This document shows positions 3,401-19,808 of a DNA stretch of 64,000 nt, piece after piece (position 1 is the stretch's first letter; the number at the start of each line of letters is the position of its first letter). The notes beneath the pieces are model-generated. The model worked only from the letters and a program-made list of their open reading frames with translations, did no database searches and was not told the DNA's origin. Made by a program: the position numbers and the translations under genes. The stretch covers positions 12,497 to 76,496 of IMG/VR virus record IMGVR_UViG_3300013132_002633; one strand, given 5' to 3'. The DNA comes from a virus.

Positions 3401-3440
3401 ATCTGTTGGTGGCAATAATTATGATTATATAACTGTATGA
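435..3440 (+). CDS. Large virion protein, probable baseplate hub/tail component
   Basis: 1001 aa, follows the LysM gene; PPPGVTSVNV, EFGW and C-terminal FQILEAEHNIESGKWTTTV resemble phage hub proteins. Confidence 0.5.
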   Translation: MADREIATTPLWWEIQNVPTQMIRELRRRKNGTSFGFSYPKDVTTINFDNSYSSYKGPLTPWVRVFSNSTGKPSNVLTPPSGYLIRKNDPLFQGYDGFILKGGDGFYDAFGYDNNTGLKDNKDKNATIGYQADGKPHYLNANVTQLQYSTTSDPKFPQNNSVPRILPPPGVTSVNVKQSKEFLTFATIKFKCYSLAQLEYLTPFFLNPGINLFVEFGWNLFNQKSLVNLKEPNDCWKLISKPQTALDLSNLSNGNYGCVTGIITKYKFSTNDGFVYDCDVEMTSRQGLYAGMKTDNVVTTSIKSEREQQDEKVYLNLKNFCKIYLPAINDVIKNKQNFYIYIKNNFELIADKYSKSNKGKEDANANAEQIKAPVASIINNDTNGKDDNRFYGGKSEDRIFTGRRIDVYGKAKSPEDAVKVNQVYVPPSRSPVALGYLAGGEIKYKVIEYKLNDNKKQISFFDQHDFDAKDNNDEVWLQLDFVFEMFNLFMSNGLERFKVDISDIVINAHPNLMPLNKDLLIPNPVSPKINKGRNKGINLQGKPTGYLKNEASIVGKNKYLNLKADIDINSNKIQRVLEKQKNNETLTDEDGYILSSFVTKNKFKTQLYERDNIDTIINYLYYDSKQTGEQTGRNEFGSAAFPFYKEKTVGNTKYKPYYYGYFKNLLISKTKLIEIVTQSKTNNYKDVIKSLLNFINNSVDDFWKLDIVERTDGQGLSIVDKNGVGKLNEIYMFDIASTNNVIRSINFDVNTSNEQAINVLFGGPVDKNTTQQLKDDIKNTNTTSQYESVYSRLTNEPLLKFVDRMDKFELQNFLANQSASINTTVAPGTPDGLVDENNDIAHLQTYGPNQDVLTMQVKFIDEKPSTPNTNTPFLQSIVDQVYLYIKNIQDAEDNLNIKFLNWPESMKGMLRAILTDGDIDNNVKYSGVADNFQLTIVFDGLFGFRNLQCFAISNLPKPYVPGNVIFQILEAEHNIESGKWTTTVTALVRSVGGNNYDYITV

Positions 3441-3820
3441 TAAACGACACTCCATCTTCATTAAGAAATATTATATCTGGATTTAACTATTATACTCCAT
3501 CTGTATATAAACCACATCCAGTCAAAAAAGATTATGACTTTGGGTATATAGACAGATACTTTGTTGCTAAAATAAATCAATCTGAATTAATGATGGAAAC
3601 TAGTATTAGAGATTACAATTCAACGGATGCAAGCTTGTATAAAAAAGCTACAATAAAGTGGAAAATATCTGGACCGGAATTCAATTTATATAAAGATAGA
3701 ATATTACAAACAGTTGGTGTTGTGGAATATAATAATAGAAGAATATCAGATGTTATTAAAATTTTTCCCGGTGCAAGTGTTATATTAAATAATCCAAAAC
3801 AATATTGGCGTGGCTTTTAA
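3437..3820 (+). CDS. Hypothetical phage protein in the structural module
   Basis: 127 aa, ATGA overlap with the upstream gene. Confidence 0.6.
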   Translation: MINDTPSSLRNIISGFNYYTPSVYKPHPVKKDYDFGYIDRYFVAKINQSELMMETSIRDYNSTDASLYKKATIKWKISGPEFNLYKDRILQTVGVVEYNNRRISDVIKIFPGASVILNNPKQYWRGF

Positions 3821-3849
3821 TTGACAATTAACGTACACGGTGATAGTTT
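3821..3849 (+). promoter_or_regulatory. sigma70-type promoter, probably leaderless
   Basis: TTGACA-17-TAGTTT with TG extension; GTG start 6 nt after the -10. Confidence 0.6.
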
Positions 3850-3855
3850 AATAGA

Positions 3856-5145
3856 GTGATATTAAGTGATAAAATATATTTAAAGTTTATAACAAAAAAT
3901 AAAAATAAACACGCAAAGTGTGATGATATTATCGCTGCATTTATTTATAATTTTGAAGATAAATCCAAGTATTACATAAATTTTAGCCACACTGATGTTG
4001 TGACTGATATGTCTTTTAATGAATTTAAAGACATGTTGAATAATTTGAACAATGTTTGTGTTTATGTAAATAACAAAAAGCGATATAGATATTGGTTAAG
4101 CTGTAATTTAATAGATATTAATTTATTTGAGTTTATCAAAAATAATTCACTGATTGAGTGGTGTGATGATGTAACTGAAAATTATATGTCTATATCATTT
4201 GGTAATGTTAATGATTATAATTTGATAATTCCATATGTAATACATCAACGAATTTTTGATACAGAAGTAAAACAAATTGAAAGTTTACACAAAGAAAAAA
4301 CGGATACATATTGTTTTAAGTTCTTTAATAACATTGTAACCGATGCGCTATTTGAGGTAGAAAAAAATGGTATAGCGATTGATAAAAATATATTTTGCAA
4401 ATATTTTACTGCTAAAACATCCGACAACTATGTTTATACTGATTATCATATTTATAATCCAACTGGCAGACCGAGTAATTGTTTTGATGGAATAAATTAT
4501 GCAGCTCTAAAAAAAGATGATGGTTCACGATCAAGTTTTATTTCTAGATATGATGGTGGATATTTGTTGATGGTTGACTTTACTGGGTTTCATCCATATA
4601 TTGTTTCAAATTTAATAGGTTATAAGGTACCTGAAAATGAAACAATATACGAACATCTGGCAAAGATGTATTATGAAATTGAAAATGTGACTGTTGATAT
4701 TATTACCAAAAGTAAAAAGTTAACTATGGTAAATTTATATGGTCAAATCAAAGAACAATATCTGAACATTGAGTTTTTTCGAAAAACTGAAGAACTCAAA
4801 GAAAAGTACTGGGTTTCTTTTTTGGAAAAGGGATATGTTACAACTCCAATTTATAAACGTAAAATAACCAATAAGCATGTATCGGATGCTAATAAAAACA
4901 AATTATTTGCATATGTTATACAAGCTGCGGAAACTGAATATGGAATGGATAGATTAAATGCTTGTATTAAATATTCATATAATAAACAAATTGTACCGAT
5001 ATTATATAACTATGATGCTATATTATTTGACGTTGGTAATGTAAAAGATGAAGAAATTGCCGACTTGGTAAACATAATTAAAAATAAAAAATTTAAGGTA
5101 AAAGTTTATAAAGGTAATAATTACAACGATTTAATTCAGATGTAA
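3856..5145 (+). CDS. Divergent family A DNA polymerase-like protein
   Basis: TGRPSN, motif A MVDFTGFHP, motif B KKLTMVNLYG, IQAAETE, motif C YNYDAILFD. Confidence 0.75.
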   Translation: MILSDKIYLKFITKNKNKHAKCDDIIAAFIYNFEDKSKYYINFSHTDVVTDMSFNEFKDMLNNLNNVCVYVNNKKRYRYWLSCNLIDINLFEFIKNNSLIEWCDDVTENYMSISFGNVNDYNLIIPYVIHQRIFDTEVKQIESLHKEKTDTYCFKFFNNIVTDALFEVEKNGIAIDKNIFCKYFTAKTSDNYVYTDYHIYNPTGRPSNCFDGINYAALKKDDGSRSSFISRYDGGYLLMVDFTGFHPYIVSNLIGYKVPENETIYEHLAKMYYEIENVTVDIITKSKKLTMVNLYGQIKEQYLNIEFFRKTEELKEKYWVSFLEKGYVTTPIYKRKITNKHVSDANKNKLFAYVIQAAETEYGMDRLNACIKYSYNKQIVPILYNYDAILFDVGNVKDEEIADLVNIIKNKKFKVKVYKGNNYNDLIQM

Positions 5146-5172
5146 ATATATTTATATATAAATTACATTTGA

Positions 5173-7539
5173 ATGAACTTTAAATCTGTATTAAATGATG
5201 TATGTTGTGACTCTAGAATCAAGAGCGGAATTTTAGATCTCAAAAACCCAGATCACGTATTTGTTTTGCAAGAATATCTGGAAAAGGTAGGCATTTCAAT
5301 TGATGAAATTGTCAATAAAACTGCTTCATTATTTGAAGCGGGTAGATTTCCAGAACGACAGGCATATAACAAAGATGGTATTTTAGTAACTTTTCCTAAT
5401 AAAGAGTATCGTACCCGTGCTATAAATAAAGGTACTCATTTTGCAGAAAATCCTAAAAAATCACAGAGTAACATTTTTACAACTCAACCTGTAGGTGACG
5501 CATCGAATTCACAGAATAAATCTAATGACATTCAATCTGTCGATAGTGAATTAGAAAAAAGTGCTGATACGAGTGTAGATATAGAAAGAGAGAGAACTCC
5601 GAAAGAACGTGTAATCGATGCGAATGATGTTGATTATATTTTAACAGGAGAAAGTCCATTGGTTAATTACAGTGTAGACGAAGCAAAAAGATTTGGATTT
5701 TACAATAAAGGATTAATTTGGTATGATGGCGACGGCAATTTAATCGGTGAACAGATATACGACGAGGTAAATAAAAAACCATTGATTAGGTTAAAAAAAG
5801 AAGCATCTTTGGCACAAATAACCACGAAGGCTTTAAAGAAAATTGACATTTTGGATACGGAATTTGCAGAAATTCTACAAATATTAAAAACTGGATCCGT
5901 TTCTGGTAAAGACGATACGTTCAAGACTGATATATACGAAACTTTACCATTGTTGGTATTATACAACATAGAACTGTCAAACGCTACAAGTTTAGGTGGA
6001 GATTCAATAAAAAGAGCTGTTGATTTTATATCAAGAGTGGGAAATTTAAAGTCTAAATTAGAGGCTATTACTGATCAAGTTAAACGAAAGGAAAATCTTA
6101 ATATTTATGAATTGGTTGTAAACAGTTTATACGAGATCGGCGGAAAAAATGGTGTTTCTTTAAAAGATATTCTAACCAATAATCCATCTGATTTTATACA
6201 TAAATCAATTGACGAGTTTTATAAAATCGCAAAAAATTACGATGAAAAGTTCAATGGTAGTGAAAAAGGAAAGAAAAACACCGCCGATATTATAATAATA
6301 TATGGTGGTACTAAAAACGATGTGTATGATGCGTTGAATTCTGGAAACATAGAAGATGTTACAAATGAATCGGTTGTTAAAATTAAAAATAAAAATATTT
6401 ATTTTGCATTGGTGAGTTTGAAAGCAATGTCTGGAAGAGTCGGACGTGTATTCACTCAGCTTAGAAATTATTTAGATGTTGATTTAGAAATACAACCGTC
6501 ATCTGAATATCAAAAAACATTAAAAGAAACTCGCCTGATACATGAGAGTTATTTTAACACGGTTAAAAATACATTTAATAATTTTATTGATAAATACAAA
6601 GAAATATCTGATGTTGTAAAAGTAAAATATCGTGATTTGATAGATAATTTTTCTAAACTGACTGGTGGATTTATCGATAAAATACGAAACGATTTATTTA
6701 CAAAATTAAATCAAGAAACCTCTGTAATAGAAAAAAATTCATTTAAAGAATTTAAAAAGTTGGAAGATTCTATAAAAAATGAGATTGGTAATTTAAATGA
6801 AAAAAGCAACACTTCGTGCGGATCGGATTCGGTTGAATTAACAACATCTCTTAGAAAAAATCTGTCGGATTATCAAAAACTATTATCTGCTACAAATACA
6901 GATTCAGTATTAATTGAAAAATTAATAACAAATTCAAAAAATCCAACGGTAACAAAATATTTTAAATTTGAGATTGACACTGCCAATCTTGATAAGATTA
7001 AAAATATAAAAAATGATATTAAATCATTATCAAAACGACTAGCAGATTCAGATATTAATTGTATTTCCAGAGAAGAATTATCTCCTGTATTGATGTATAG
7101 AAGTAATATACTAGCATTACAGTATATTGATTTAATAATGAATCGTATATTGCAGTACGTAAACTTATCGGATCCGGACAAAATTCAAAGTGAATTTTTA
7201 AAGCTAGCATCTGTTTTATCTACAGAGGCTATATTTGGAGGAAATGTAAGTTTGCCACTAATAAAATATACAGGCAATAAACTTGAAAGATTGGGTTATA
7301 AAAATCAATACAAAATTAAAGTTCCCGATAAAATACCAGATTTAAAACTTGGAAAACTATCAGTCAAACTAGAACCTGATTTAAATGCTTATATGATTAT
7401 AAATCTTTATTTATTTTATGGCATTGAAACAAACGACGATGAAGTTACTCCTACATATGTTTTATACGAAATGAGAACTGAGAGTGGTAGTAGTTTTACA
7501 TTTAAAGTTGAGGGAAATAAATTCGTAAATAAAATTTAA
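5173..7539 (+). CDS. Hypothetical protein, 788 aa
   Basis: Long ORF preceded by TATTTATA; NTADIIII...VSLK is faintly PD-(D/E)XK-like but not reliable. Confidence 0.6.
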   Translation: MNFKSVLNDVCCDSRIKSGILDLKNPDHVFVLQEYLEKVGISIDEIVNKTASLFEAGRFPERQAYNKDGILVTFPNKEYRTRAINKGTHFAENPKKSQSNIFTTQPVGDASNSQNKSNDIQSVDSELEKSADTSVDIERERTPKERVIDANDVDYILTGESPLVNYSVDEAKRFGFYNKGLIWYDGDGNLIGEQIYDEVNKKPLIRLKKEASLAQITTKALKKIDILDTEFAEILQILKTGSVSGKDDTFKTDIYETLPLLVLYNIELSNATSLGGDSIKRAVDFISRVGNLKSKLEAITDQVKRKENLNIYELVVNSLYEIGGKNGVSLKDILTNNPSDFIHKSIDEFYKIAKNYDEKFNGSEKGKKNTADIIIIYGGTKNDVYDALNSGNIEDVTNESVVKIKNKNIYFALVSLKAMSGRVGRVFTQLRNYLDVDLEIQPSSEYQKTLKETRLIHESYFNTVKNTFNNFIDKYKEISDVVKVKYRDLIDNFSKLTGGFIDKIRNDLFTKLNQETSVIEKNSFKEFKKLEDSIKNEIGNLNEKSNTSCGSDSVELTTSLRKNLSDYQKLLSATNTDSVLIEKLITNSKNPTVTKYFKFEIDTANLDKIKNIKNDIKSLSKRLADSDINCISREELSPVLMYRSNILALQYIDLIMNRILQYVNLSDPDKIQSEFLKLASVLSTEAIFGGNVSLPLIKYTGNKLERLGYKNQYKIKVPDKIPDLKLGKLSVKLEPDLNAYMIINLYLFYGIETNDDEVTPTYVLYEMRTESGSSFTFKVEGNKFVNKI

Positions 7540-8065: not shown

Positions 8066-8899
8066 ATGGCATTAGATATTAGCAAGCTAAAGAGCCGTTT
8101 GAACTCTCTTTCAAACACAAATCAAAAATCCAACCTTATCTGGAAGCCCAAGCCTGGCAAACAGGTAGTTCGTATTGTTCCTTATAAGTTTGTACCTGAA
8201 AACCCTTTTATTGAACTCAAGTTTCATTATAACTTGAACGGTAAGAGTTATCTATCTCCTGATAGTTTTGGTCGCCCCGATCCTATCGTTGAGTTTAGTA
8301 ACCGTCTAAAAAAGACTGGTGATAAAGAAGACTGGAAGACTGGTCGTAAAATGGAGCCAAAGATGCGAACGTTCGCTCCCGTAATTGTACGTGGAGAAGA
8401 ACATGAAGGAGTAAAGTTTTGGGGTTTTGGTAAACAAGTTTATCAGGAACTATTGTCTATAATCAGTGATCCTGATTTTGGTGATATTACTGACTTAACT
8501 AGTGGGCGTGATATAGTTGTAGAGTTTAAAACGGGTGATGAATCTGGTAAGACATACCCAGAAACAAACATTCGTGTAAAACCAAATGTTAGTGTTGCAG
8601 TTGATCCTAAAAATTCTCAATTGATTGATTCTCTTAAAAACCAAATTAATATTTTGGATTTGTTCCCAGAGTTGACATATGACGAATTGGAGGACGTTAT
8701 GGATAAGTGGTTGAATCCTGAAGTTTCAACAGAAACTACAGACGACACTTCTGTATCAACTTCAACTGATGACGATGATGTGCCGATTACATCAAATGTA
8801 AAACCGGTTGACGTATCTCCATCGGCTAATAAAGCAAAAACCAATGTTCCCGCAAAAGACAATGTTGAACAAGCATTCGATGACTTGTTTAATTCTTAA
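8066..8899 (+). CDS. Single-stranded DNA-binding protein (T4 gp32-like)
   Basis: WKPKPG-VRIVP, FHY, GVKFWGFGK-VY, DITD-SGRD, acidic tail ending AFDDLFNS; adjacent to the recombinase. Confidence 0.85.
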   Translation: MALDISKLKSRLNSLSNTNQKSNLIWKPKPGKQVVRIVPYKFVPENPFIELKFHYNLNGKSYLSPDSFGRPDPIVEFSNRLKKTGDKEDWKTGRKMEPKMRTFAPVIVRGEEHEGVKFWGFGKQVYQELLSIISDPDFGDITDLTSGRDIVVEFKTGDESGKTYPETNIRVKPNVSVAVDPKNSQLIDSLKNQINILDLFPELTYDELEDVMDKWLNPEVSTETTDDTSVSTSTDDDDVPITSNVKPVDVSPSANKAKTNVPAKDNVEQAFDDLFNS

Positions 8900-8909
8900 A
8901 CAATAAAAT

Positions 8910-8943
8910 AAAGCCGGTGGAGTTTTTATACCCCACCGGCTTT
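8910..8943 (+). terminator. Intrinsic terminator-like hairpin after ssb
   Basis: AAAGCCGGTGG / CCACCGGCTTT 11-bp stem. Confidence 0.7.
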
Positions 8944-8958
8944 CTAGTTATATACACT

Positions 8959-9252
8959 ATGGCAAAAAAATCTACAGTTTCAAAAGAATCTACACAACGA
9001 GATGAATTAATTGAGTTGTTGGCAAGTGAGCTTAATAAAGCAAATAAAGAAGGTGGCAAGATTGCATACTTTTTAGATGAACAAGAAAATCCAGCAGAAA
9101 TTAGTGATTGGATTAGCACAGGATCATCTATATTGGATTTAGCAATCAGTAACCGTCCGCACGGTGGTCTTCCAGTTGGCAAGATGGTTGAATTCAACGG
9201 ATTGGAAGGATGCGTAACCGAAGACACTATAATAAAAGTTATTATTGAATAA
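8959..9252 (+). CDS. recA: RecA/UvsX piece 1: 84-aa N-extein plus 13-aa N-intein
   Basis: WISTGSSILDLAIS...GGLPVGKMVEFNGLEG, then CVTEDTIIKVIIE*; likely start ATG 8959 because the track start lies inside the terminator. Confidence 0.9.
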   Translation: MAKKSTVSKESTQRDELIELLASELNKANKEGGKIAYFLDEQENPAEISDWISTGSSILDLAISNRPHGGLPVGKMVEFNGLEGCVTEDTIIKVIIE

Positions 9253-9707
9253 AAATCTCCAATCCAACTATTAAAAGAAAAAAATCTGATGATAGATTTA
9301 GAAAATTTGGAAAAATTAAAAAGAAATTTATGAATAGAATAGTAAAAGAAATAAAAGTTGGTGATGTTTTATCTCTCTTAGCAGAAGGTAAAAATATTAA
9401 AGTATTGACTCGTAACAACGAGTATGTAAACATTACAAATTATGTAGATAAAGGATTATTAGATACATTTAAAGTTACATTAGATAATGGATTTACAATA
9501 AAGGTCTCTAGAGAACATAAATTTTTTACAAATGTTGGTTGGGTAGAACAGAGAAATTTAATTAAAGAAAATCACAAAATCTTTTGTGAAGATGGTGAAT
9601 ATCGTACAATACAAGATATAGAATATATTGGAAAACACAAAATTGTAGATATCACCGTTGATTCAGATGATCATTCGTATTTTGGAAATGGTATGCTTAA
9701 TCATAAT
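9211..9707 (+). mobile_element. Atypically split intein RecA-1 (IntN 9211-9249, 13 aa; IntC 9330-9707, 126 aa) in Walker A
   Basis: Cys1 block A; IntC holds block B VSREHKFF, block F IVDITV..HSYFGNG and terminal HN followed by +1 Thr; splicing restores GLEG|TGKS. Confidence 0.88.
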
Positions 9708-10193
9708 ACAGGAAAATCATTGGTATCTGCACATGTTGTTGCTGATACTCAAAGAAAAGGTGGAGTTGCAGTTGTCATTGATACTGAAAACGCAGCTGCT
9801 CCTGAGTTCTGGAAAAGTTTGGGTGTAGATCTATCTAAGTTACTGTATGTTCAATGTGAAACCGTTGAAGATATTTTTGCTCAGATGGAAAAGATGATCG
9901 CAATTGTTCGTAAGAGCAACAAAGATCGCATTCTTACAATCATTGTTGATTCTGTAGCAGCAGCATCAACTAAGGCAGAACTAGAAAGTGATCATGGTAA
10001 AGATGGTTATGCAACTGGTAAGAGTATTATTATCAGCAAGGCGATGCGTAAGATTACTACCATGATTGGTCGTCAAAAGGTTCTTACTGTGTTTACCAAT
10101 CAACTTCGTCAAAATATAAATGCTATGGCATTTGGTGATAAATATTGTGTTGATCCGTATACAACAAAAATAAAAATTAGATATAAAATTTAA
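9330..10193 (+). CDS. recA: RecA/UvsX piece 2: IntC-1, 146-aa middle extein, 15-aa IntN-2
   Basis: TGKS, IDTENA, Walker B IIVDSVAA, FTNQLR, then CVDPYTTKIKIRYKI*. Confidence 0.92.
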   Translation: MNRIVKEIKVGDVLSLLAEGKNIKVLTRNNEYVNITNYVDKGLLDTFKVTLDNGFTIKVSREHKFFTNVGWVEQRNLIKENHKIFCEDGEYRTIQDIEYIGKHKIVDITVDSDDHSYFGNGMLNHNTGKSLVSAHVVADTQRKGGVAVVIDTENAAAPEFWKSLGVDLSKLLYVQCETVEDIFAQMEKMIAIVRKSNKDRILTIIVDSVAAASTKAELESDHGKDGYATGKSIIISKAMRKITTMIGRQKVLTVFTNQLRQNINAMAFGDKYCVDPYTTKIKIRYKI

Positions 10194-10201
10194 TTTTTCC
10201 T

Positions 10202-10245
10202 CCTCCTACTATACACTTATACTTAAATAAGTCCTTAGTAGGAGG
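10202..10245 (+). promoter_or_regulatory. Hairpin sequestering the Shine-Dalgarno of the endonuclease gene
   Basis: CCTCCTACTA (10202-11) pairs with TAGTAGGAGG (10236-45); inner stem ACTTAT/ATAAGT; ATG at 10250. Confidence 0.8.
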
Positions 10246-10249
10246 TAAT

Positions 10250-11287
10250 ATGATTTTACTAGAATATTTAGATATAAATTTAACGTGGAAGAAAAATAAA
10301 CCAATTTTTAAATTTATAATTAAAACGGAAAAAAGAAAAACTAAAGAATTTCCTCTTAAATGTATTGTAAATAACAAAAGAATATCTAAAACAGGCAAAG
10401 AATATTATATACATTATTTGGGAGAAATTGGAGAAGAAGTATATAACGAGAGAAAAAAGTTATATAGCATGTACAGTCTTATACCATTTTATATTAAAAC
10501 GTATAATAAAGATGTTGAGAAATTGAACGAATATCTTAAAATATTGAAAAGTAATAATGTGAACGGCATTAAAAAATTTTATTTGTCCGAAAAGGGAGCT
10601 GAAGCTAGAAAAATACAATCGGAATGGGGAATTAAACATTCAATGGAAATCTCATCTAGAAATAGAAAATTATGGAAAGAAGATGAGTATGTTAACAAAG
10701 TCAAATCAAATCAAGATTATTCTTATGAAAATCATGGGAAGAAAATTTCCGATTTCTATAAAAATCAAAAAAATAAAGATTTCATAAAAAGTGTCATGAA
10801 CTCCCCGAAGAGAATCGAAAAAATATCGTTATCATCTAAAAAAATGTGGGAACATGCAAAATCATTTAATAAAGAGATGTATTATAGAATGATAAATTCG
10901 CAAAAACATAAAAATTTTGAATTAAATGGATATAAACTTAATAATATCGAATATTTGGTAGGTAGTATATTAAACAATTTTTCTATAAATTGGGAATACG
11001 AAAAAATTTTTCAGTTTAAAACAACTTGTTATTTGCCCGATTTTTATGTAAGATCTAAAAATCTAATCATAGAATGTTATGGTGATTATTGGCACGCCAA
11101 TCCTAAATATTTAAACGAAAACGATTTTACACATAAAAATAGATCTGTGAAAGATGTATGGGCATACGACTCTAGAAAAAAAGAAATTTTTGAAAACAAT
11201 GAATTTTCTTACTTATTTTTCTGGGAAAATGATATTCTAAATAACATAGATGGTATAAAAAAAACAATATATGAATACACAAGATAA
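10250..11287 (+). CDS. Free-standing Vsr/DUF559-like homing endonuclease
   Basis: C-terminal YLPDFY..LIIECYGDYWHANP...FWENDI; basic N-terminal region; lies between intein halves. Confidence 0.8.
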   Translation: MILLEYLDINLTWKKNKPIFKFIIKTEKRKTKEFPLKCIVNNKRISKTGKEYYIHYLGEIGEEVYNERKKLYSMYSLIPFYIKTYNKDVEKLNEYLKILKSNNVNGIKKFYLSEKGAEARKIQSEWGIKHSMEISSRNRKLWKEDEYVNKVKSNQDYSYENHGKKISDFYKNQKNKDFIKSVMNSPKRIEKISLSSKKMWEHAKSFNKEMYYRMINSQKHKNFELNGYKLNNIEYLVGSILNNFSINWEYEKIFQFKTTCYLPDFYVRSKNLIIECYGDYWHANPKYLNENDFTHKNRSVKDVWAYDSRKKEIFENNEFSYLFFWENDILNNIDGIKKTIYEYTR

Positions 11288-12113
11288 ATACATAGAAGAA
11301 GAATTAACAATTGCCGAGTTTGCGGAAAGATTTTTAGGAATGAATAATTATTCATCTGAAAACGTTGAAGAAATAGATATATCGGATATGGATATAGAAA
11401 TATATGGTCGAGATTTAAAGTCCTCACAGGATTGCTATAATAAAATTAATAAATTTATAATCAAAACTCCATCGGAATATCATTACAGTGATGGTATACT
11501 GAAAGGCACAGATTTACATCGAATTATTGAAGATGGAGTTGAAATTCACTTGAAAGATCACAACGATTTCAAAAGGGTTAATGAACCAATAAAAGTTGTA
11601 GATTTCGATATTGAAAATACACACAATTATTATGCCAATGGTCGATTAAATCATAATACCGTAAGCGGTGGCAAGGCTTTGGCTTATCACTGTAGTGTTC
11701 GTGTTCGTTTGAACAACACTGGTAAGTTGAAAAAGGCAGAAGAAGTTATTGGCAACGAGTGTAAAGCAGTTGTTATCAAAAACAGAATGGGTCCGCCACA
11801 ACGTCAAGCTAACTTTGAAATCTACTTTGACAGCGGTATTGCTGACTATAGTAGTTGGATCAAAGTATTGAAGGAGAATAACATTATCAAACAAGGTGGT
11901 GCGTATTACTCTTACAGAAAAGAAGACGGTAGTGAATGGAAGTTCCAATCCAAAGACTTTGTATCTACCATGCAATCTGACAAGGTTTTAAAAGAAGAAT
12001 TATATCTTAAGATCTGTGATGCGGTTGTTATGAAATACAAAGATCCTAACAGTCAAATCGTTGAGGATGCTACTGTTGATACTGATGAAGAAACTGCTGG
12101 AAACGACGAATAA
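11271..12113 (+). CDS. recA: RecA/UvsX piece 3: IntC-2 plus 151-aa C-extein
   Basis: GGKALAYHCSVRVRL, VIKNRMGPP, IYFDSGI, GAYYSY. Confidence 0.92.
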   Translation: MNTQDKYIEEELTIAEFAERFLGMNNYSSENVEEIDISDMDIEIYGRDLKSSQDCYNKINKFIIKTPSEYHYSDGILKGTDLHRIIEDGVEIHLKDHNDFKRVNEPIKVVDFDIENTHNYYANGRLNHNTVSGGKALAYHCSVRVRLNNTGKLKKAEEVIGNECKAVVIKNRMGPPQRQANFEIYFDSGIADYSSWIKVLKENNIIKQGGAYYSYRKEDGSEWKFQSKDFVSTMQSDKVLKEELYLKICDAVVMKYKDPNSQIVEDATVDTDEETAGNDE

Positions 12114-13186
12114 TGAATGAGTTAACACCAATCGAACGAAAGAAATTGTTCTCAATGTTCGAGAATATAGAAAGAGATTCCGTCATAACAGGACTTAAAA
12201 AATCGCTAAATAGTGATGTTCTGTTGGTTGACGGATTGTAGTTAAATACCTATATTCGTAGTTTCATGGCGATACCATCTTTAAATGACGATGGACTTCA
12301 CACGGGTGGTATCGCCGGTTTTCTTAAAAGTGTAGGATACGCAATAAAATTATTGAGTCCTACCAGAGTTATAATTGTATTTGACGGAAAAGGTGGGTCT
12401 CAAAAAAGAAGAAAGATTTATCCAGACTACAAAAATGGACGTAGAACTGATATTAAATTAAACAGATCATATGATGATCTATCAAATTCGGTTATTGAAA
12501 AAGCCAATTTCAAAAAAGAATTGATACGTACTGTAAATTACCTCGACGTGTTGCCTGTTACTGTAATGGCTATTGATAATATCGAAGCAGATGATACGAT
12601 TGCATATCTAGCTAAACAAACATTCAAAGACAGTAAGGTTACAATTATGTCTACGGACAAAGATTTTTTACAGTTAGCGAGTGATCAAATAAATATTTGG
12701 AGTCCTGTAAAGAAAAAAATATTTGGTTGTAAAGAAATTATTGATGAATATGGAATAACATGTAAAAACTTCATATTTTACAGAATAATGGAAGGAGACG
12801 TAAGCGATAATATTACAGGTTTGGATGGCGTGGGATTAAAACGTGTTACACAAGCATTTCCTTTTTTGGGTGAAGATCCACAGGCGTGTTTACAACAAAT
12901 ATATAATTATAGTGAAAATAATCGTAGCAGATATAAGATTTACGAGCGAGTATTAGACAATAAATTATTATTGGAACGTAATTATGAACTCATGCAATTA
13001 CATAATACACAAATTCAATCCTTTACTCAATTGAGAATTGAAGAGATTATAAATAAACCAGTTCCAAAAATTGATAAAATGAGTTTTAGTAAACTGATTA
13101 CAGAAGATAAAATGTGGTCAAATATACCTAATTACATGTACTGGTTAAATGAGTGTTTTGGAAAATTAAATTCATTTGTTGAATAA
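12113..13186 (+). CDS. 5'-3' exonuclease/RNase H (FEN/PolI-N family) with an in-frame TAG at 12239-12241 (recoded or pseudogene)
   Basis: ATG 12113 overlaps the recA stop and is in frame with the 12266 ORF: VLLVDGL*LNTYIRSF; downstream VFDGKGGS, EADD, STDKDFLQ and GDVSDNITG are intact. Confidence 0.85.
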
Positions 13187-13229
13187 TCAACAACTTCACA
13201 TAAAACTATAAGTTACAAATTGTAAAATG

Positions 13230-13258
13230 TTTACAACACACGTTGTATAGATTAGAAT
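13230..13258 (+). promoter_or_regulatory. sigma70-type promoter for the helicase, overlapped by an inverted repeat
   Basis: TTTACA-17-TAGAAT; TACAAC-acac-GTTGTA at 13232-13247. Confidence 0.5.
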
Positions 13259-13297
13259 GCATAGACTATAGACTGAGTAGATAAAATAATATAAAAT

Positions 13298-14116
13298 ATG
13301 ACTGAAAAAATTATAATAGATTCACTTCGTAAGTATGGATTGGACTTTCAAATAAAGTGCATAACGTGTCTGTTATCAGATCGTAGCTTTATGGAGAGAA
13401 TTCAAGATATTGTTGAGGCTGAATTTTTTGAAAGTGATGCACAAAAATGGATTCTTAAAGAAAGTGTAAAATATTTTAATGAATATAAAGATCTTCCAAC
13501 ACTAACTGTATTCAAGGTTAAAGTAGATACTGTTGAAAACGAGGTTCTTAAAAAATCTATTATAGATAGCCTAAAATTGGTTTATCAAAAGTTAAATGAT
13601 AACGATTTGAAATTTGTTAAAGAACAATTTTTGGAATTTTGTAAGAACCAAAAATTAAAGAATGCTATATTTGAAAGTGCTGATTTATTGGAAACAGGTC
13701 AATATGACAAAATAAAGATGGTGGTTGATACCGCCATGAAAGCTGGTATGGAAAGAAATATTGGTCATGAATACGATGTAGAAATCGAAAAGCGTATGAG
13801 TATCATGGCTCGTAACACAATAAAAACCAACTGGACTGAAATCGATACTATCATGGACGGTGGTCTTGGGCCAGGTGAACTTGGAATTGTTGTTGCGCCA
13901 GCAGGAATTGGCAAATGTATTGGTCCAAATACCGAAATTGAGATCGAATATCACGAATTTGGTATTGAAACATTATCAAGTTGCGGAAAATCATTTATAA
14001 TGTGGATTAATCCGTTTGAAAAATATAAAATAGACGATGTTGAATTACTAGGTTGGCAAGTTGAAAATGTTTTTTATGAAATTGAAAAAATAAAACAAGA
14101 AAAAACTAAAAATTAA
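13298..14116 (+). CDS. dnaB: DnaB/gp41 helicase piece 1: 206-aa N-extein plus 66-aa N-intein segment
   Basis: DGGLGPGELGIVVAPAGIGK, then CIGPNTEIEIEY... Confidence 0.9.
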   Translation: MTEKIIIDSLRKYGLDFQIKCITCLLSDRSFMERIQDIVEAEFFESDAQKWILKESVKYFNEYKDLPTLTVFKVKVDTVENEVLKKSIIDSLKLVYQKLNDNDLKFVKEQFLEFCKNQKLKNAIFESADLLETGQYDKIKMVVDTAMKAGMERNIGHEYDVEIEKRMSIMARNTIKTNWTEIDTIMDGGLGPGELGIVVAPAGIGKCIGPNTEIEIEYHEFGIETLSSCGKSFIMWINPFEKYKIDDVELLGWQVENVFYEIEKIKQEKTKN

Positions 14117-14118
14117 CG

Positions 14119-14146
14119 TTGACCGGCATCGGTAAGTATTTATAAT
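14119..14146 (+). promoter_or_regulatory. Internal sigma70-type promoter ahead of the endonuclease and helicase piece 2
   Basis: TTGACC-16-TATAAT, overlapping TATTTATA 14137-44. Confidence 0.55.
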
Positions 14147-14185
14147 AAATTTCATTTTTATGACATATGAGATCTATTTATTGAC

Positions 14186-14911
14186 ATGAGTATTAAAAAA
14201 GAATTTTCAATATATCGATACCAATACTGGATGCAGAAATATGGTTTGACCGAAACCGACGCTAAAAATAAAGTCACATCAATTCAAAGAGAAAATGCGT
14301 TAAAATCATCAAAGAAGTTCACGCCAGATCGATCTTATTTAAAAAAAGAATATTGGATTAAAAAGAAAGGATATACTGAGTCAGATGCTGTCAAAAAAAT
14401 ATCTGAGATTCAATCGGAGTATTCAAAAAAATCCAGTAGATTCACAGGCAAAATTAGAACAATTGAGAGCAAAATTAAAATTTCAAACTCATTAAAATCT
14501 AAAATTGCCAAGATAGGCGGTGGCAATTGGGCAAAGCATTTTGGTCAATTTAATGGCAACTCTAAAATTGAAAAAGAATTTTATTTTTATATAAAAAATA
14601 ATATAAACACAAACGTTCAGGCAAATGTTCCTATATCAAATTATATAGTTGATGTTTTACATGAAACAAAAATAGTAGAATTTTATGGCGATTTTTGGCA
14701 CGCAAATCCTAAATTTTATGAATGTGATGACCTTATAAAATCGTTTAGTATCAATAAAACTGCAAATGAAATATGGATCAGTGATAATCGTAGAATTGAC
14801 ATATTACAAAAAATGGGGTATGATGTATTGATAATCTGGGAAAATGATTGGAAAAAAAACAAACAAGAGTGTATAGAAAAAATAAAAAAACATTATGAAA
14901 TTATTAATTAA
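14186..14911 (+). CDS. Free-standing Vsr/DUF559-like homing endonuclease
   Basis: IVEFYGDFWHANP...GYDVLIIWENDW; two N-terminal repeats YW..K.G.TE.DA..K...IQ. Confidence 0.82.
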   Translation: MSIKKEFSIYRYQYWMQKYGLTETDAKNKVTSIQRENALKSSKKFTPDRSYLKKEYWIKKKGYTESDAVKKISEIQSEYSKKSSRFTGKIRTIESKIKISNSLKSKIAKIGGGNWAKHFGQFNGNSKIEKEFYFYIKNNINTNVQANVPISNYIVDVLHETKIVEFYGDFWHANPKFYECDDLIKSFSINKTANEIWISDNRRIDILQKMGYDVLIIWENDWKKNKQECIEKIKKHYEIIN

Positions 14912-16007
14912 AAATGTCCGTGAAAATATTAAAATAAAAGATTTATTTGATAGATTAAAAATTAAAGATGAAGAAAATGCGATGGAACAGTTAAAATTTC
15001 CATTAAAAGTAAATACACCATTTGGTTATAAAAAAATTGTGACAGCGTTTCGTACTGAAAAACAAAAAACAATAACTTCTTATTTTGGTAACAATAAAAC
15101 ATTAAAGACTTCTGGAAAACATAGATTAAAAGTAAACGGGAGTTGGAAATTCGTAGATGAAATAAACTCTGGAGAGCTAGTAGAAACTGAAGTTGGTACC
15201 ACAAAATTAGTATCAAAAAAAGAAGGTCGAGACGAGATATTATATGATATATCGGTTGATGAAGTGCATTGTTATTATAGCAATGGCATTCTTTCCCATA
15301 ATTCATGGGTACTTGCCAAGTTGGGAGCTGAAGCAATGAAACAAGGTAAAAATGTTCTTCACTTCACACTAGAATTAAATGAAAACTATGTTGGATTACG
15401 ATATGATAGTTGTTTTACTGGAATTGATTTCCAAAATATCAGAAACAACATTGACATTGTAAAACAAAAGATTTCAGAAGTGCCTGGTAAACTTGTTATC
15501 AAGTATTTTCCATTGAAGACGGTATCAGCTCATAGCTTAAAATCTCATACTGAAAGATTGGCTGTATTGGGTACAAAAATTGACATGATCGTTGTAGATT
15601 ATGCAGATATTCTTCGTCCAGTACACAGTGATCGTAATAGCAACAGTTATAGTGAGGCTGGTGGTATTTACGAAGAGCTAAGAAGTATCGCGGGTGAACT
15701 TCAAATTCCAATTTGGAGTGCAAGTCAAGCGAATAGGTGTCATTTGGTTGATGATCAAGTACTTACAAATCGAGGAACGATTAGACTAGGAGATTTGACT
15801 ATTAACGATTTGGTTTTGACTCACAAAGGACTTAAAAAAGTAACAAAAATTTTTCCAACCGAAACGCAGCCTGTTTATAAAATTAAATTAAGATCTGGTA
15901 AAGAGATTAATATATCTGCAAATCATAGAGTTCCAACCGCCGACGGCAGATTAAAATCATTAGAAACTGGGTTGTCTGTAGGCGACAAGTTATTTACAAA
16001 AAAATAA
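14895..16007 (+). CDS. dnaB: DnaB helicase piece 2: IntC-1, 145-aa middle extein, 89-aa IntN-2
   Basis: HFTLEL, Walker B IVVDYADIL, IPIWSASQANR, then CHLVDDQV...ISANHRVPT. Confidence 0.92.
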   Translation: MKLLIKNVRENIKIKDLFDRLKIKDEENAMEQLKFPLKVNTPFGYKKIVTAFRTEKQKTITSYFGNNKTLKTSGKHRLKVNGSWKFVDEINSGELVETEVGTTKLVSKKEGRDEILYDISVDEVHCYYSNGILSHNSWVLAKLGAEAMKQGKNVLHFTLELNENYVGLRYDSCFTGIDFQNIRNNIDIVKQKISEVPGKLVIKYFPLKTVSAHSLKSHTERLAVLGTKIDMIVVDYADILRPVHSDRNSNSYSEAGGIYEELRSIAGELQIPIWSASQANRCHLVDDQVLTNRGTIRLGDLTINDLVLTHKGLKKVTKIFPTETQPVYKIKLRSGKEINISANHRVPTADGRLKSLETGLSVGDKLFTKK

Positions 16008-17389
16008 TATTTTGTGATGCAGACCATATATTTAATATTATATGATTAACACTAAATTTAGAGATATTGTTCATTTAATGAACCAGAAGCCGTTCCGTGA
16101 TTTTAAAAATGATTTAAGCGAATGCGTAATCAGTAACTTAAAAAAGGTCATATTAGAGTTTGATAAAAAATATATCTTGAATAACAAGAAAGAAGTCATA
16201 CAGAACATGATTAGATATAATGTTGATGGTGATTGGGTAGAGAGATTAAAAAATGGTGATAAATATAAAAAAGACGGATTTTCCATGGAAGCATTGATTG
16301 TGAAATATGGCGAATCTGTTGCAAAGTTAATATCAGATGAAAGAAACGATAAAGTTGCGATTACCAAGGATAAATATATACGAAACCATAGTGAACATGA
16401 ATGGGAAGAATTATGTAAAAAAAAGAGAAGTAATTTAGGACTTGATGGTTATATTAAAAAATATGGACATGAAGAAGGTTTAAAAAAATGGAACAATTAC
16501 TTAAAAAAATGGAAAATTGGCATTGAAAAGAAAAAAGCTGATGGTTGGAAAAATGGTTTAACGATTGAGGAATATCAAACTAGATATGGAATAAAAGAAG
16601 GATATGAACGTTGGAGAAAAAGAATAAATAGTAGAAAATATACTCTTTCTTTAGAAGGATATATTAATAAACACGGTGGTGAGTTGGGAAAAAAGTTGTG
16701 GGGTGAATATTGTAAATCAAATAATAAAACGTCGTTGGAGTCTTTTATCAAAAGATACGGTGAGAAGTTTGGAAAAGAAAAGTACGTTTTGATGCTAGAA
16801 AAGATCTTTTGTTATTTAAAAAACCGAAGGTGTTATAGCATAATTTCCCAAGAATTATTTAAAAATGTAGCAGATAAATTGGAAAATAAAAATGATATAA
16901 AATATGCAATACAAAATGGAGAGCAATATTTTTTTATTAATGAAAATTTTTGTAAAGGTATGTTTGTCGATTTTAAATATGGAAACATAATTATAGAATT
17001 TTATGGAGATTTTTGGCATGCTAATCCATCTAAATACAAAGAAAACGATATAGTAAAACTTCCTAATAACAATAAATTGGCTAATAAAGTTTGGAGTGAA
17101 GATAAAGAAAAAATTGATTGGTTGGTAAAACGAGGATACAATGTAATGATTGTATGGGAAAGTGATTATTTGAAAAATAAAAATGAAGTGGTACAGAGTT
17201 GTTTAAATTTCATAAAACAGAACTATAAATAATATGACAGAAAAAATTACAAAAGAACACGATTTAAATCCTAATGAGTTTGAGTTAGATGAAATAGTCA
17301 ACATAGAGTGTATAGGTGATCATGAAACGGTTGACATTACTGTGGATGACACGCATATGTTTTTTGCAAATGGTGTATATACACACAAT
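15738..17389 (+). mobile_element. Conventionally split intein DnaB-2 (IntN 15738-16004, 89 aa; IntC 17234-17389, 52 aa), gp41-8-like, with an intervening endonuclease gene
   Basis: Block B SANH lies in IntN; IntC ETVDITVDDTHMFFANGVYTHN followed by Ser; junction SQANR|SAADE resembles the gp41-8 site as I recall it. Confidence 0.9.
16042..17232 (+). CDS. Free-standing Vsr/DUF559-like homing endonuclease with tandem helical repeats
   Basis: IIEFYGDFWHANP...GYNVMIVWESDY; 4-6 repeats of L-E-x-Y-I-x-K-Y-G-x-x-x-G-x-x-x-W. Confidence 0.82.
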   Translation: MINTKFRDIVHLMNQKPFRDFKNDLSECVISNLKKVILEFDKKYILNNKKEVIQNMIRYNVDGDWVERLKNGDKYKKDGFSMEALIVKYGESVAKLISDERNDKVAITKDKYIRNHSEHEWEELCKKKRSNLGLDGYIKKYGHEEGLKKWNNYLKKWKIGIEKKKADGWKNGLTIEEYQTRYGIKEGYERWRKRINSRKYTLSLEGYINKHGGELGKKLWGEYCKSNNKTSLESFIKRYGEKFGKEKYVLMLEKIFCYLKNRRCYSIISQELFKNVADKLENKNDIKYAIQNGEQYFFINENFCKGMFVDFKYGNIIIEFYGDFWHANPSKYKENDIVKLPNNNKLANKVWSEDKEKIDWLVKRGYNVMIVWESDYLKNKNEVVQSCLNFIKQNYK

Positions 17390-17719
17390 TCAGCAGCAGA
17401 CGAAGACATTGTTATGGCACATCACGCTGCCGACAGTTATCGTAAAATCATGACTGCCGATTTCGTAATGAGTGTGTCTCGCAAGACAAACGATAAAGTA
17501 AGTAATACAGCACGATTCCACATTATTAAAAATCGTTTCGGACCAGATGGTTTGACATTCCCAAGCAAAATGAATGCTGGCTGTGGTCAGATTGAGATTT
17601 ATGGTGAAAACAGTCGTGAAGGTCTGGCTGTGTTGAATGAAATGATGGACGGTGAGAACAATGTGAAAAAAGTCTTAAAAAATAAATGGAACGCACATAA
17701 TGCTAATGACGATGAATAA
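17234..17719 (+). CDS. dnaB: DnaB helicase piece 3: IntC-2 plus 109-aa C-extein
   Basis: ADSYRKIMTADFVM and the arginine-finger motif IIKNRFGPDG. Confidence 0.92.
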   Translation: MTEKITKEHDLNPNEFELDEIVNIECIGDHETVDITVDDTHMFFANGVYTHNSAADEDIVMAHHAADSYRKIMTADFVMSVSRKTNDKVSNTARFHIIKNRFGPDGLTFPSKMNAGCGQIEIYGENSREGLAVLNEMMDGENNVKKVLKNKWNAHNANDDE

Positions 17720-17834
17720 TTCATAGTTAAATTTATTTAATTAAATAAAAATTTATGCATAAATTAATAAAAAATTATTGAACATAAGAGAACTAAATTT
17801 GATAGTTATTTTCTACCTAAAGAAAGATTATAAT

Positions 17835-19808
17835 ATGAGTGAAATTTTATCTAAAGAGTTTATTAAAAAATACGCAAAAAAACAACCGAATTGGGGATTC
17901 AACGGTTTAGGATATATTGTTTATAAAAGAACATATGCTAGACTAAAGGAAGATGGTAACACCGAAGAATGGCATGAAACAGTTGAAAGATGTATAAATG
18001 GCGCTCAGAAAATTGGAGCTAGATACACTAAAGATGAAGCAGAACGACTTTTTGATTATGTTTTTAATTTGAAATGTAATTTTGCAGGAAGAATGCTTTG
18101 GCAACTAGGCACCAGTACGGTTGATAGATTTGGTGCTAATTCTTTGCTAAACTGTTGGTTTACAAGTATTAGAGAACCCAAAGCATTTTTGTTTCTTTTT
18201 GAAAATCTAATGTTGGGTGGAGGTGTTGGATATAGCATCCGACGAGAAGATGTACATGAACTTCCTAGAATCAAAAAGGACGTTGTAGTAACGCATCTGC
18301 CAACTAAAGATGCGGACTTTATTGTGCCTGACACTAGAGAAGGATGGGTAAATTTATTGTCAAATGTGTTAGATGCGTTTTATAAAACCGGTAAGTCTTT
18401 CACATACAGTACAATTCTTATACGTGGTGCTGGAGAAAAAATAAATGGATTTGGTGGTAAAGCAAGTGGTCCCACCATCTTAGTAGACGGAATTGAAAAG
18501 ATTACAAAAATTTTCCAAAGTCGTGAATCAAAAAAACTAAGAAGTATCGATGTACTCGACATTTGTAATATTATTGGTAGTATCGTAGTTGCTGGAAATG
18601 TAAGAAGATCCGCTGAAATAGCGTTGGGTGATCCTGATGACGTTTTATATCTCAGAGCAAAAAATTGGAGCAGTGGTAACATACCAAATTGGCGTGCAAT
18701 GAGTAACAACACTCTATACGTCGATGATTACAGTCATCTTATGGACGAGTTTTGGTCAAATGGATATGAGATAAATAACGAAACGGGATTTGCTAATGGA
18801 GAACCTTATGGATTTTTCAATCTACCTCTCAGCCAAAAATATGGTAGATTAAAAGATGGTCCTCTTAAAGATTGTAATTTATATCCAACCGATGTTGACA
18901 ATGTTATTGGTACAAATCCGTGCGGTGAGATAAGTTTAAGTGATTATGAATGTTGTAATTTAAGTGAATTATATTTAAATAATATAACATCGCAGGAAGA
19001 ATTAAATGATTGTGCAAAATTGTTGTATAAAACACAAAAAGCAATTGCAGCACTTCCGTTTATTCACGATGAAACAAATAAAATTGTTCATAAAAACATG
19101 AGACTTGGGTTGGGTGTCACTGGTATTTGTCAATCACTCGATAAGCTACCATGGTTGGATACATGTTATGTTGAACTTCGTAAGTTTGATAAATATTGGA
19201 GTAAAGAACGAGGGTGGTCTGAAAGTATTAAATTGACCACTATCAAACCATCAGGAACTTTAAGTTTATTAGGAGGTGCAACTCCCGGCGTACATCCGGC
19301 ATATAGTAAATACTATATGAGAACTGTCAGAATGAGTAGCGGCGATAAGTTAGTTCAAATCTGCAAAGATTTAGGATATCATACTGAATTTTTATTGAAT
19401 TTTGATGGCACCGAAAACCGTGATACAGTTGTTGTTTATTTTCCATGTGAAACTCCCGAAGGAGCAATACTAGCTGATGATATGAGTGTTAAAAAACAAC
19501 TAGACGTGGTAATGGAACTTCAGAAAATTTGGAGTGACAATGCCGTTAGTGTCACTGCTTATTATGACCCTCAAGAATTAAATATTCTGAAAGAATGGTT
19601 GACTGAAAATTATAAAAATAACATAAAGAGTGTTAGCTTTTTATTGAGACAAAAACACGGATTTAAACAGGCTCCGTATCAAGAAATTGATAAAGAATCA
19701 TATTTAAAGGCAAAAGATAAAGTTAAACCTTTAACTAACCTAAATATTAACGGAGGTGATTTGTTACAAGGCATTGAATGTGAAGGTGGTGCTTGTCCGA
19801 TTCGTTAA
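17835..19808 (+). CDS. nrdJ: Class II (B12-dependent) ribonucleotide reductase
   Basis: YKRTYAR, LLNCWF, GNVRRSAEI, TNPCGEI, TIKPSGT, C-terminal CEGGACPIR; probable start ATG 17835. Confidence 0.92.
   Translation: MSEILSKEFIKKYAKKQPNWGFNGLGYIVYKRTYARLKEDGNTEEWHETVERCINGAQKIGARYTKDEAERLFDYVFNLKCNFAGRMLWQLGTSTVDRFGANSLLNCWFTSIREPKAFLFLFENLMLGGGVGYSIRREDVHELPRIKKDVVVTHLPTKDADFIVPDTREGWVNLLSNVLDAFYKTGKSFTYSTILIRGAGEKINGFGGKASGPTILVDGIEKITKIFQSRESKKLRSIDVLDICNIIGSIVVAGNVRRSAEIALGDPDDVLYLRAKNWSSGNIPNWRAMSNNTLYVDDYSHLMDEFWSNGYEINNETGFANGEPYGFFNLPLSQKYGRLKDGPLKDCNLYPTDVDNVIGTNPCGEISLSDYECCNLSELYLNNITSQEELNDCAKLLYKTQKAIAALPFIHDETNKIVHKNMRLGLGVTGICQSLDKLPWLDTCYVELRKFDKYWSKERGWSESIKLTTIKPSGTLSLLGGATPGVHPAYSKYYMRTVRMSSGDKLVQICKDLGYHTEFLLNFDGTENRDTVVVYFPCETPEGAILADDMSVKKQLDVVMELQKIWSDNAVSVTAYYDPQELNILKEWLTENYKNNIKSVSFLLRQKHGFKQAPYQEIDKESYLKAKDKVKPLTNLNINGGDLLQGIECEGGACPIR

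Follow-up and report, generated by a model that had tools for sequence, protein, structure and literature searches.

Three-piece recA and helicase genes of a lake phage and the four split inteins predicted to join their products

In Trichodesmium erythraeum the replication gene dnaE carries several inteins, one of them split and the others contiguous, and its protein is made in two pieces that a single trans-splicing reaction joins. This is unlike the locus described here, in which a recA gene and the gene of a DnaB/gp41-type helicase are each broken into three pieces at split inteins. The locus lies at positions 8959-17719 of a stretch of 64,000 nucleotides (nt), hereafter the window, which is part of the 76.5-kb viral contig IMGVR_UViG_3300013132_002633 of IMG/VR, from lake-water metagenomes. 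We refer to its four inteins as RecA-i1, RecA-i2, DnaB-i1 and DnaB-i2, to the N- and C-terminal parts of an intein as IntN and IntC, to the RecA pieces as A1 to A3 and to the helicase pieces as B1 to B3; related loci carry an L and a number.

The closest described systems are the fractured phage genes of Dassa, London, Stoddard, Schueler-Furman and Pietrokovski (2009; PMC2677866), which include gp41-1 to -8, NrdJ-1, NrdA, IMPDH-1 and others. In the excerpted text of that study, as here, the intein halves sit on adjacent same-strand open reading frames (ORFs) for phage DNA metabolism, with a Vsr-like endonuclease gene between the halves and a hairpin upstream; its gp41-7 locus is without an endonuclease gene, like the first RecA gap of our locus. 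DnaB-i2 is itself a relative of gp41-1 (IntN, E 4e-10). The enzymes in the excerpt are fractured in two, whereas here two genes are in three pieces each, giving middle proteins of the form IntC-extein-IntN. RecA is not among the fractured hosts within the same excerpt, in which the nearest hint of our layout is a DnaE-1 locus with part of an additional intein.

Atypically split inteins form a second group of relatives. VidaL (PDB 6VGV; IntN of 16 amino acids, aa), PolB16 (15 aa), AceL-TerL (25 aa) and GOS-TerL are split near the N-terminus after the first strands, leaving a peptide-sized IntN and a large IntC that holds block B (PMC13014065), an arrangement shared by inteins of our locus with IntC parts of 126-136 aa. 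Natural atypical IntN parts measure 15-37 aa, those of PolB16 and VidaL being the shortest (PMC13014065). Compared with these inteins, the hosts here are RecA and the Walker A site of a helicase, and the IntN parts reach 13 aa (RecA-i1) and 66 aa (DnaB-i1). Finally, engineered tandem trans-splicing (Humberg et al., 2025, from the groups of Mootz and Pietrokovski, PMC12707363; Pinto et al., 2020, PMC7090010) and SICLOPPS cyclisation share with our locus three segments, two split inteins and a middle segment flanked by IntC and IntN. The 2025 paper presents tandem trans-splicing only as an engineered scheme. Such sets are laboratory constructs that do not cross-react, whereas the set described here is natural, conserved and under selection, and its orthogonality is what we infer. 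The original prediction for this locus, made from its letters, knew of no characterised example; likewise, our literature search, which covered papers readable without a subscription, found no paper on a natural protein joined by two split inteins. Natural joining by two split inteins per protein would to that extent be new to the literature found; the fractured-gene setting is known.

Our reading is that four split inteins would join the three RecA pieces and the three helicase pieces by protein trans-splicing, and we give it a probability of about 0.8. At the level of sequence, every expectation of the original prediction held. The RecA pieces and the first gap are arranged as follows:

8959-9252, plus strand: RecA piece 1 (A1); N-extein at 8959-9210 (84 aa, ending in GLEG), then the IntN of RecA-i1 at 9211-9249 (13 aa, CVTEDTIIKVIIE) and a stop codon.
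9253-9329, plus strand: A1-A2 spacer; 77 nt from the A1 stop codon to the A2 start, without an endonuclease gene.
9330-10193, plus strand: RecA piece 2 (A2, the middle piece); IntC of RecA-i1 at 9330-9707 (126 aa, ending in NHN), extein at 9708-10145 (146 aa, TGKS...GDKY) and IntN of RecA-i2 at 10146-10190 (15 aa, starting with CVDP).
11271-12113, plus strand: RecA piece 3 (A3); IntC of RecA-i2 at 11271-11657 (129 aa, ending in NHN), then the C-extein at 11658-12110 (151 aa, starting with TVSGG).

The Pfam RecA profile runs collinearly over the three ORFs (profile positions 3-64, 62-196 and 198-261), as does the PHROG profile of UvsX (phrog_97; 1-83, 83-233 and 355-483). Joined in silico, the exteins give a protein of 84 + 146 + 151 = 381 aa that is 50% identical to the uninterrupted RecA of the Microcystis phage Mel-JY01 (381 aa), both junctions being free of gaps. 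Only in the joined exteins are the Walker A loop GLEGTGKS, which spans junction 1, and a full-length collinear match to RecA and UvsX present. The helicase is built in the same way:

13298-14116, plus strand: DnaB/gp41 helicase piece 1 (B1); N-extein at 13298-13915 (206 aa, ending in GIGK), then the IntN of DnaB-i1 at 13916-14113 (66 aa, starting with CIGPNTEIEIEY).
14895-16007, plus strand: helicase piece 2 (B2, the middle piece); IntC of DnaB-i1 at 14895-15302 (136 aa, ending in SHN), extein at 15303-15737 (145 aa, SW...QANR) and IntN of DnaB-i2 at 15738-16004 (89 aa, starting with CHLV).
17234-17719, plus strand: helicase piece 3 (B3); IntC of DnaB-i2 at 17234-17389 (52 aa, ending in THN), then the C-extein at 17390-17716 (109 aa, starting with SAAD).

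Here the PHROG DnaB profile (phrog_19) is collinear over the three ORFs (161-366, 367-507 and 511-612), and the joined exteins (206 + 145 + 109 = 460 aa) are 43% identical to the uninterrupted Mel-JY01 helicase (452 aa), again with gap-free junctions. The Walker A loop AGIGKS at junction 1 and a full-length collinear match to DnaB/gp41 are likewise found in the joined exteins only. In about 70 related IMG/VR contigs each joined protein is matched from end to end by a single tblastn segment (RecA 1-381 at 87-93% identity, helicase 1-460 at 72-95%), and the empty sites of all four insertions are present in them. Since the alignments to uninterrupted orthologues are gapless, the predicted junctions are the exact empty sites. 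The three-piece architecture goes far beyond chance. All nine ORFs lie where the original prediction had placed them, and its extein lengths (84 + 146 + 151 = 381 and 206 + 145 + 109 = 460 aa) proved correct; the kinship of the proteins joined in silico with RecA, UvsX and DnaB is borne out by the collinear profiles, and that of the intein parts by Hint profiles.

The inteins themselves differ in where they are split and in what they resemble:

RecA-i1: IntN and IntC of 13 and 126 aa; the IntC resembles the gp41-1 intein (E 1e-8).
RecA-i2: IntN and IntC of 15 and 129 aa; known inteins are matched weakly by sequence, at blocks F and G only.
DnaB-i1: IntN and IntC of 66 and 136 aa; the IntC aligns to gp41-1 31-128 (E 4e-3) and weakly to VidaL 38-141 (E 0.013).
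DnaB-i2: IntN and IntC of 89 and 52 aa; the IntN resembles that of gp41-1 (E 4e-10).

Pfam matches to Intein_splicing and to PT-HINT/Hint fall on the predicted intein parts. All four inteins have the class-1 residues: Cys1, a (T/S)xxH block B (SREH, GTDLH, SGKH and SANH, in the order of the list), a terminal HN and, at +1, Thr, Thr, Ser and Ser, so that the C-terminal junctions read NHN/T, NHN/T, SHN/S and THN/S. A Cys-initiated IntN and an IntC ending in HN before Thr or Ser had been claimed for every break, and this is what we find four times over. Among 22 aligned homologues of the RecA middle piece, H63, H125, N126 and C273 are invariant; the same holds for H83, D111 and N129 in an alignment of 26 homologues of the RecA-i2 IntC.

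The original prediction rightly took all four inteins to be split, and it was silent on the atypical split of three of them. RecA-i1 and RecA-i2 have a peptide-sized IntN, with block B within the IntC; DnaB-i1 also has block B on its IntC, yet an IntN of 66 aa; DnaB-i2 is the sole canonical split intein of the gp41-1 kind. Judged by their sequences, three of the four inteins are thus atypically split, and the predicted 13-aa IntN of RecA-i1 falls below the published natural range of 15-37 aa. This IntN, stop codon included, recurs in at least four other contigs (L083, L084, L085 and L088), and in contiguous homologues the same 13 aa are fused to the IntC part. Contiguous homologues of both RecA inteins cross the two split points uninterrupted. 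An exhaustive search gave 68 relatives of RecA-i2, some of them split, with the IntC fronting proteins of about 280 aa, and others contiguous, in RecA proteins of 509-557 aa that hold the intein at about residues 242-364. Both DnaB inteins occur in contiguous form as well. Aligned with gp41-1, DnaB-i1 is longer by roughly 85 residues at its split, counting the end of the 66-aa IntN and some 30 residues at the front of the IntC (13916-14113 and 14895-14990), and these may be an association module. Contiguous homologues retain these residues, for example P0135 (646 aa).

For the second RecA intein we modelled the complex of the A2 tail (its IntN) with the IntC part of A3, which scored 0.75 against 0.01 for the best control; of 80 solved complexes 58 attain this mark of 0.75, and of 110 mismatched pairs 2 do. 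The runs share at least 68% of contacts and the partner pLDDT is at least 52. In the model, residues 270-287 of A2 lie against A3 strands, His83 and residues 127-130, the terminal HN-T. Given that split-intein complexes have already been solved, part of this pass may reflect likeness as much as binding.

How the locus would work can be outlined from these parts. Four independent selfish elements, each made of an intein and, at first, also a free-standing homing endonuclease gene, would each have interrupted one or the other of two essential genes for replication and recombination in a large lake phage. The six gene pieces would be translated separately, and each IntN would pair with its own IntC and complete the Hint fold. 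Class-1 splicing would then proceed from a thioester at Cys1 through transfer to the +1 Thr or Ser to cyclisation of the terminal Asn, leaving the exteins joined; two such reactions per protein would yield the 381-aa RecA and the 460-aa helicase. The first cuts fall inside the Walker A loops (GLEG/TGKS and GIGK/SW), and for this reason no lone piece should bind ATP normally, which would make splicing obligatory for function. Each middle piece begins with an IntC and ends with the IntN of the other intein, a layout that cyclises if the halves match, so the two inteins of a gene must not cross-react. Expression of all the pieces, their splicing and the orthogonality of the pairs are what we infer.

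For the mutual orthogonality of the four intein pairs, the analysis covered sequence divergence and charge. The inteins are pairwise 28-36% identical. Cognate halves are opposite in net charge in three pairs (+3/-13, -6/+6 and +7/-11), and in RecA-i1 an acidic IntN (-2) faces an IntC that is basic (+2) over its first 25 residues. In both middle pieces the two carried intein halves are alike in charge, which would work against cyclisation and skipping. We considered a charge code as a general basis of orthogonality and rejected it, because locus L088 does not fit it and neither do all DnaB homologues; we keep the charges as a local observation.

Free-standing homing endonuclease genes stand at three of the four breaks, and one of them is preceded by a stable hairpin:

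10202-10245, plus strand: RNA hairpin that buries the AGGAGG ribosome-binding site of HE1 (-20.8 kcal/mol, z -5.65, none of 200 shuffles as good).
10250-11287, plus strand: HE1, a free-standing Vsr-like (DUF559) homing endonuclease gene (DUF559 24 bits, cut-off 20.6; phrog_22677); its end overlaps the A3 start by 17 nt.
14186-14911, plus strand: HE2, a Vsr-like homing endonuclease gene (DUF559 23.1 bits; phrog_22677 1.6e-20); its end overlaps the B2 start by 17 nt.
16042-17232, plus strand: HE3, a Vsr-like homing endonuclease gene (phrog_22677 3.9e-32; Pfam DUF559 below the cut-off); its stop lies 1 nt before the B3 start.

Conserved E..GD(F/Y)WH ... (E/N)(N/S)D motifs are visible in the Vsr-like endonucleases, reading E..GDYWH...END in HE1; a search of PDB with the HE1 sequence gave no match. 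Over its N-terminal two thirds, HE3 is built of repeated modules of about 20-25 aa, (Y/F)I.KYG...G...W, of which HE1 and HE2 have fewer copies, and which are likely DNA-binding repeats of the Vsr-like endonuclease family. A3, B2 and B3, the three C-side pieces behind an endonuclease gene, begin at or inside the final codons of that gene, which makes translational coupling to it probable. At three other places, namely ahead of HE2, ahead of HE3 and in the A1-A2 spacer, hairpins were no better than those of shuffled sequences. A promoter-like site close to consensus (TTGACC, 16 nt, TATAAT; 11 of 12 matches) lies at 14119-14146, in the gap just upstream of HE2.

The first RecA break is without an endonuclease gene, HE1 to HE3 standing in the other three gaps. 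In relatives the same gap holds an ORF of 361 aa (L084) or of 71 aa (L088). The 361-aa ORF (L084:1802-2887) is unlike HE1 to HE3 and runs into the start of the ORF that bears the IntC; the atypical split was probably made by this putative endonuclease gene, since lost in the window.

The layout had been presented as the case of a single genome, and in this respect the original prediction has to be revised. Intein-aware queries fetched 82 loci, of which 62 have none of the four inteins, 11 one, 6 two, 2 three and 1 all four; the last, L088, comes from another metagenome. Sequences of the intein-free alleles are provided by L004, L012 and L038. L091 has the three-piece RecA and L132 the three-piece helicase, L087 and L090 combine a contiguous RecA-i1 with a split RecA-i2, and the break after the first helicase piece is also found in L046, L088, L089 and L132. 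Searching databases for other IntC-extein-IntN ORFs, as the original prediction had suggested, was fruitful: of the best 120 protein clusters in each search, 24 for RecA, whose extein identity falls as low as 53%, and 33 for DnaB have such middle pieces, and the same cluster lists hold forms with the first break only, with the second break only, or with contiguous inteins. Each intein is present or absent independently of the others among relatives. Moreover, the cassette of RecA-i2 and HE1 in L005 (7816-9327, against 10146-11657 of the window) is 88-100% identical in amino acids, values of 95% and 88% among them, with a synonymous divergence (dS) of 0.36-0.49, whereas the RecA exteins flanking it are 80-87% identical to those of the window, with dS 0.9-2.0. 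The cassette is closer than its flanks, which points to recent horizontal transfer. Independent presence and absence together with this cassette are as expected of mobile elements and may lend indirect support to cleavage of the intein-free allele by the endonucleases; by its sequence the window appears as the heavily invaded end of a mosaic and no one-off.

The recA gene of L088 additionally holds a group I intron (5684-6100; RF00028, 54 bits, E 1e-12), five codons past the second intein site, after TTSGG. With its two split inteins and this intron, that gene is interrupted twice at the protein level and once at the RNA level. In L090, weaker intron matches flank a Vsr-like ORF at the same place of recA.

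Several observations tell against joining by four orthogonal inteins. A look-up of sequencing runs that contain the stretch listed none of RNA. Ribosome-binding sites are weak or absent before most pieces. In L088 both RecA IntN parts are acidic and both IntC starts basic, and homologues of the first DnaB IntC span net charges of -5 to +12. A C-V...T...I-K pattern is common to both RecA IntN peptides, which makes some cross-reaction between them conceivable. By estimate the record covers some 25% of the genome, and an intact second copy of recA or dnaB could lie elsewhere. Additionally, the sample mixes variant strains, as seen from many loose ends and short contigs in the Logan data, so that the linkage of all four inteins on one molecule rests on the assembly.

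These last points lead to the alternative that survives best, although we consider it unlikely: that the locus is an assembly mosaic of co-occurring strains, or a decaying copy with intact genes elsewhere. The variant strains in the sample would allow a mosaic, relatives with 0, 1, 2 or 3 inteins are common, and the contig amounts to only about a quarter of the genome. However, L088 has all four inteins in another metagenome, L091 and L132 each hold one of the three-piece genes, and no second match to RecA or DnaB_C was found elsewhere in the 76-kb record. Selection argues in the same direction. In unsaturated comparisons the exteins have a ratio of nonsynonymous to synonymous substitutions (dN/dS) of 0.04-0.12, the intein halves one of 0.05-0.20 and the endonucleases one of 0.14-0.21 (0.16-0.21 for HE1 and 0.14 for HE2), values that indicate purifying selection on all of these parts. 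That the stops might be assembly errors was a concern of the original prediction, and it is eased by Logan contigs of three lake-water runs, one of which may be the source sample. They reproduce several stops and starts and match the window without an indel across the A1 stop, the spacer and the A2 start, from the B1 stop to the B2 start, and from the B2 stop to B3. The ORF ends are conserved among divergent homologues. Three Logan joints (10183>14578, 12757>16495 and 14113>14957) were considered as intein-free or contiguous alleles and dropped, given that they have 21 letters on the short side and that the last is out of frame with B2; we take them as repeats or other strains.

Only a little less probable than a mosaic or a decaying copy is that the pieces assemble non-covalently, the intein halves being mere docking domains or catalytically dead, as in the NrdA of Aeromonas phage Aeh1, which a mobile endonuclease gene has split. 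For a ribonucleotide reductase made in fragments, assembly by way of interaction domains of mobile-element origin has been described (PMC3045599). Against such an assembly, none of the four inteins has lost a class-1 catalytic residue, and these residues are invariant across 22-26 homologues, and a Hint domain left in place (139 or 202 aa) would hold apart both Walker A loops. Removal of the interruptions as RNA, by group I introns with endonuclease ORFs, or their bypass by the ribosome, is improbable in the extreme: group I introns of recA can indeed harbour Vsr-like endonuclease ORFs (Dassa et al., 2009), and an intron of this kind stands 5 codons downstream of the second RecA intein site in L088 and L090, but an Rfam search of 8500-18200 at E up to 1, with the L088 recA intron as positive control, gave no match and no group I intron, which also answers the original concern that the spacers are RNA introns, the gaps are flanked by recognisable Hint halves with contiguous homologues, and A1 and A2 are in different reading frames, so that read-through cannot fuse them.

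The two fractured genes belong to a replication module with the gene order gp32-like single-stranded DNA-binding protein (SSB), RecA, 5'-3' exonuclease, DnaB/gp41-type helicase and class II ribonucleotide reductase, with a DNA polymerase further on. Mel-JY01 has RecA, exonuclease and helicase in the same order, with uninterrupted genes. One gene of this module lies between the two fractured ones and is given for context:

12266-13186, plus strand: 5'-3' exonuclease gene, in the same order in Mel-JY01.

Named phages gave no megablast match to the region, and promoter and terminator scans of the region did not rise above shuffled expectation. Between the SSB stop and the RecA start, at 8910-8943, there is a perfect 14-bp GC-rich palindromic hairpin, terminator-like on either strand, which favours the ATG at 8959 over the GTG at 8917 as the start of RecA. 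Further along the window, a 20-kb block of about 20 minus-strand genes (29583-50111) has inverted GC and AT skew and includes a gene with a match to a glycosyltransferase family (45366-46706). No PHROG matched the large plus-strand ORFs at 435-7539.

With clearly less assurance than for the joining itself, we lean towards seeing here a natural case of tandem trans-splicing. Four co-resident split inteins, three of them atypically split and one with a 13-aa N-piece shorter than any published natural one, would join six polypeptides into two essential enzymes in one infected cell, with no cross-reacting pair, no skipped exon and no middle piece made cyclic, and would form a naturally selected orthogonal toolkit with peptide-sized tags. 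Users of tandem trans-splicing seek split inteins that do not cross-react and have very short tags; the natural sets described here must work together in one cell, and they include N-pieces of 13 and 15 residues on one RecA, with many homologues to compare. For annotation, gene callers label such pieces 'hypothetical' or partial RecA or DnaB. The states seen among related phages are the empty site, the contiguous intein, and the split intein with or without an endonuclease. All intermediate states exist, and the route from intein to fractured gene can therefore be traced. Finally, the locus shows the extent to which selfish elements fragment essential genes while function is kept.

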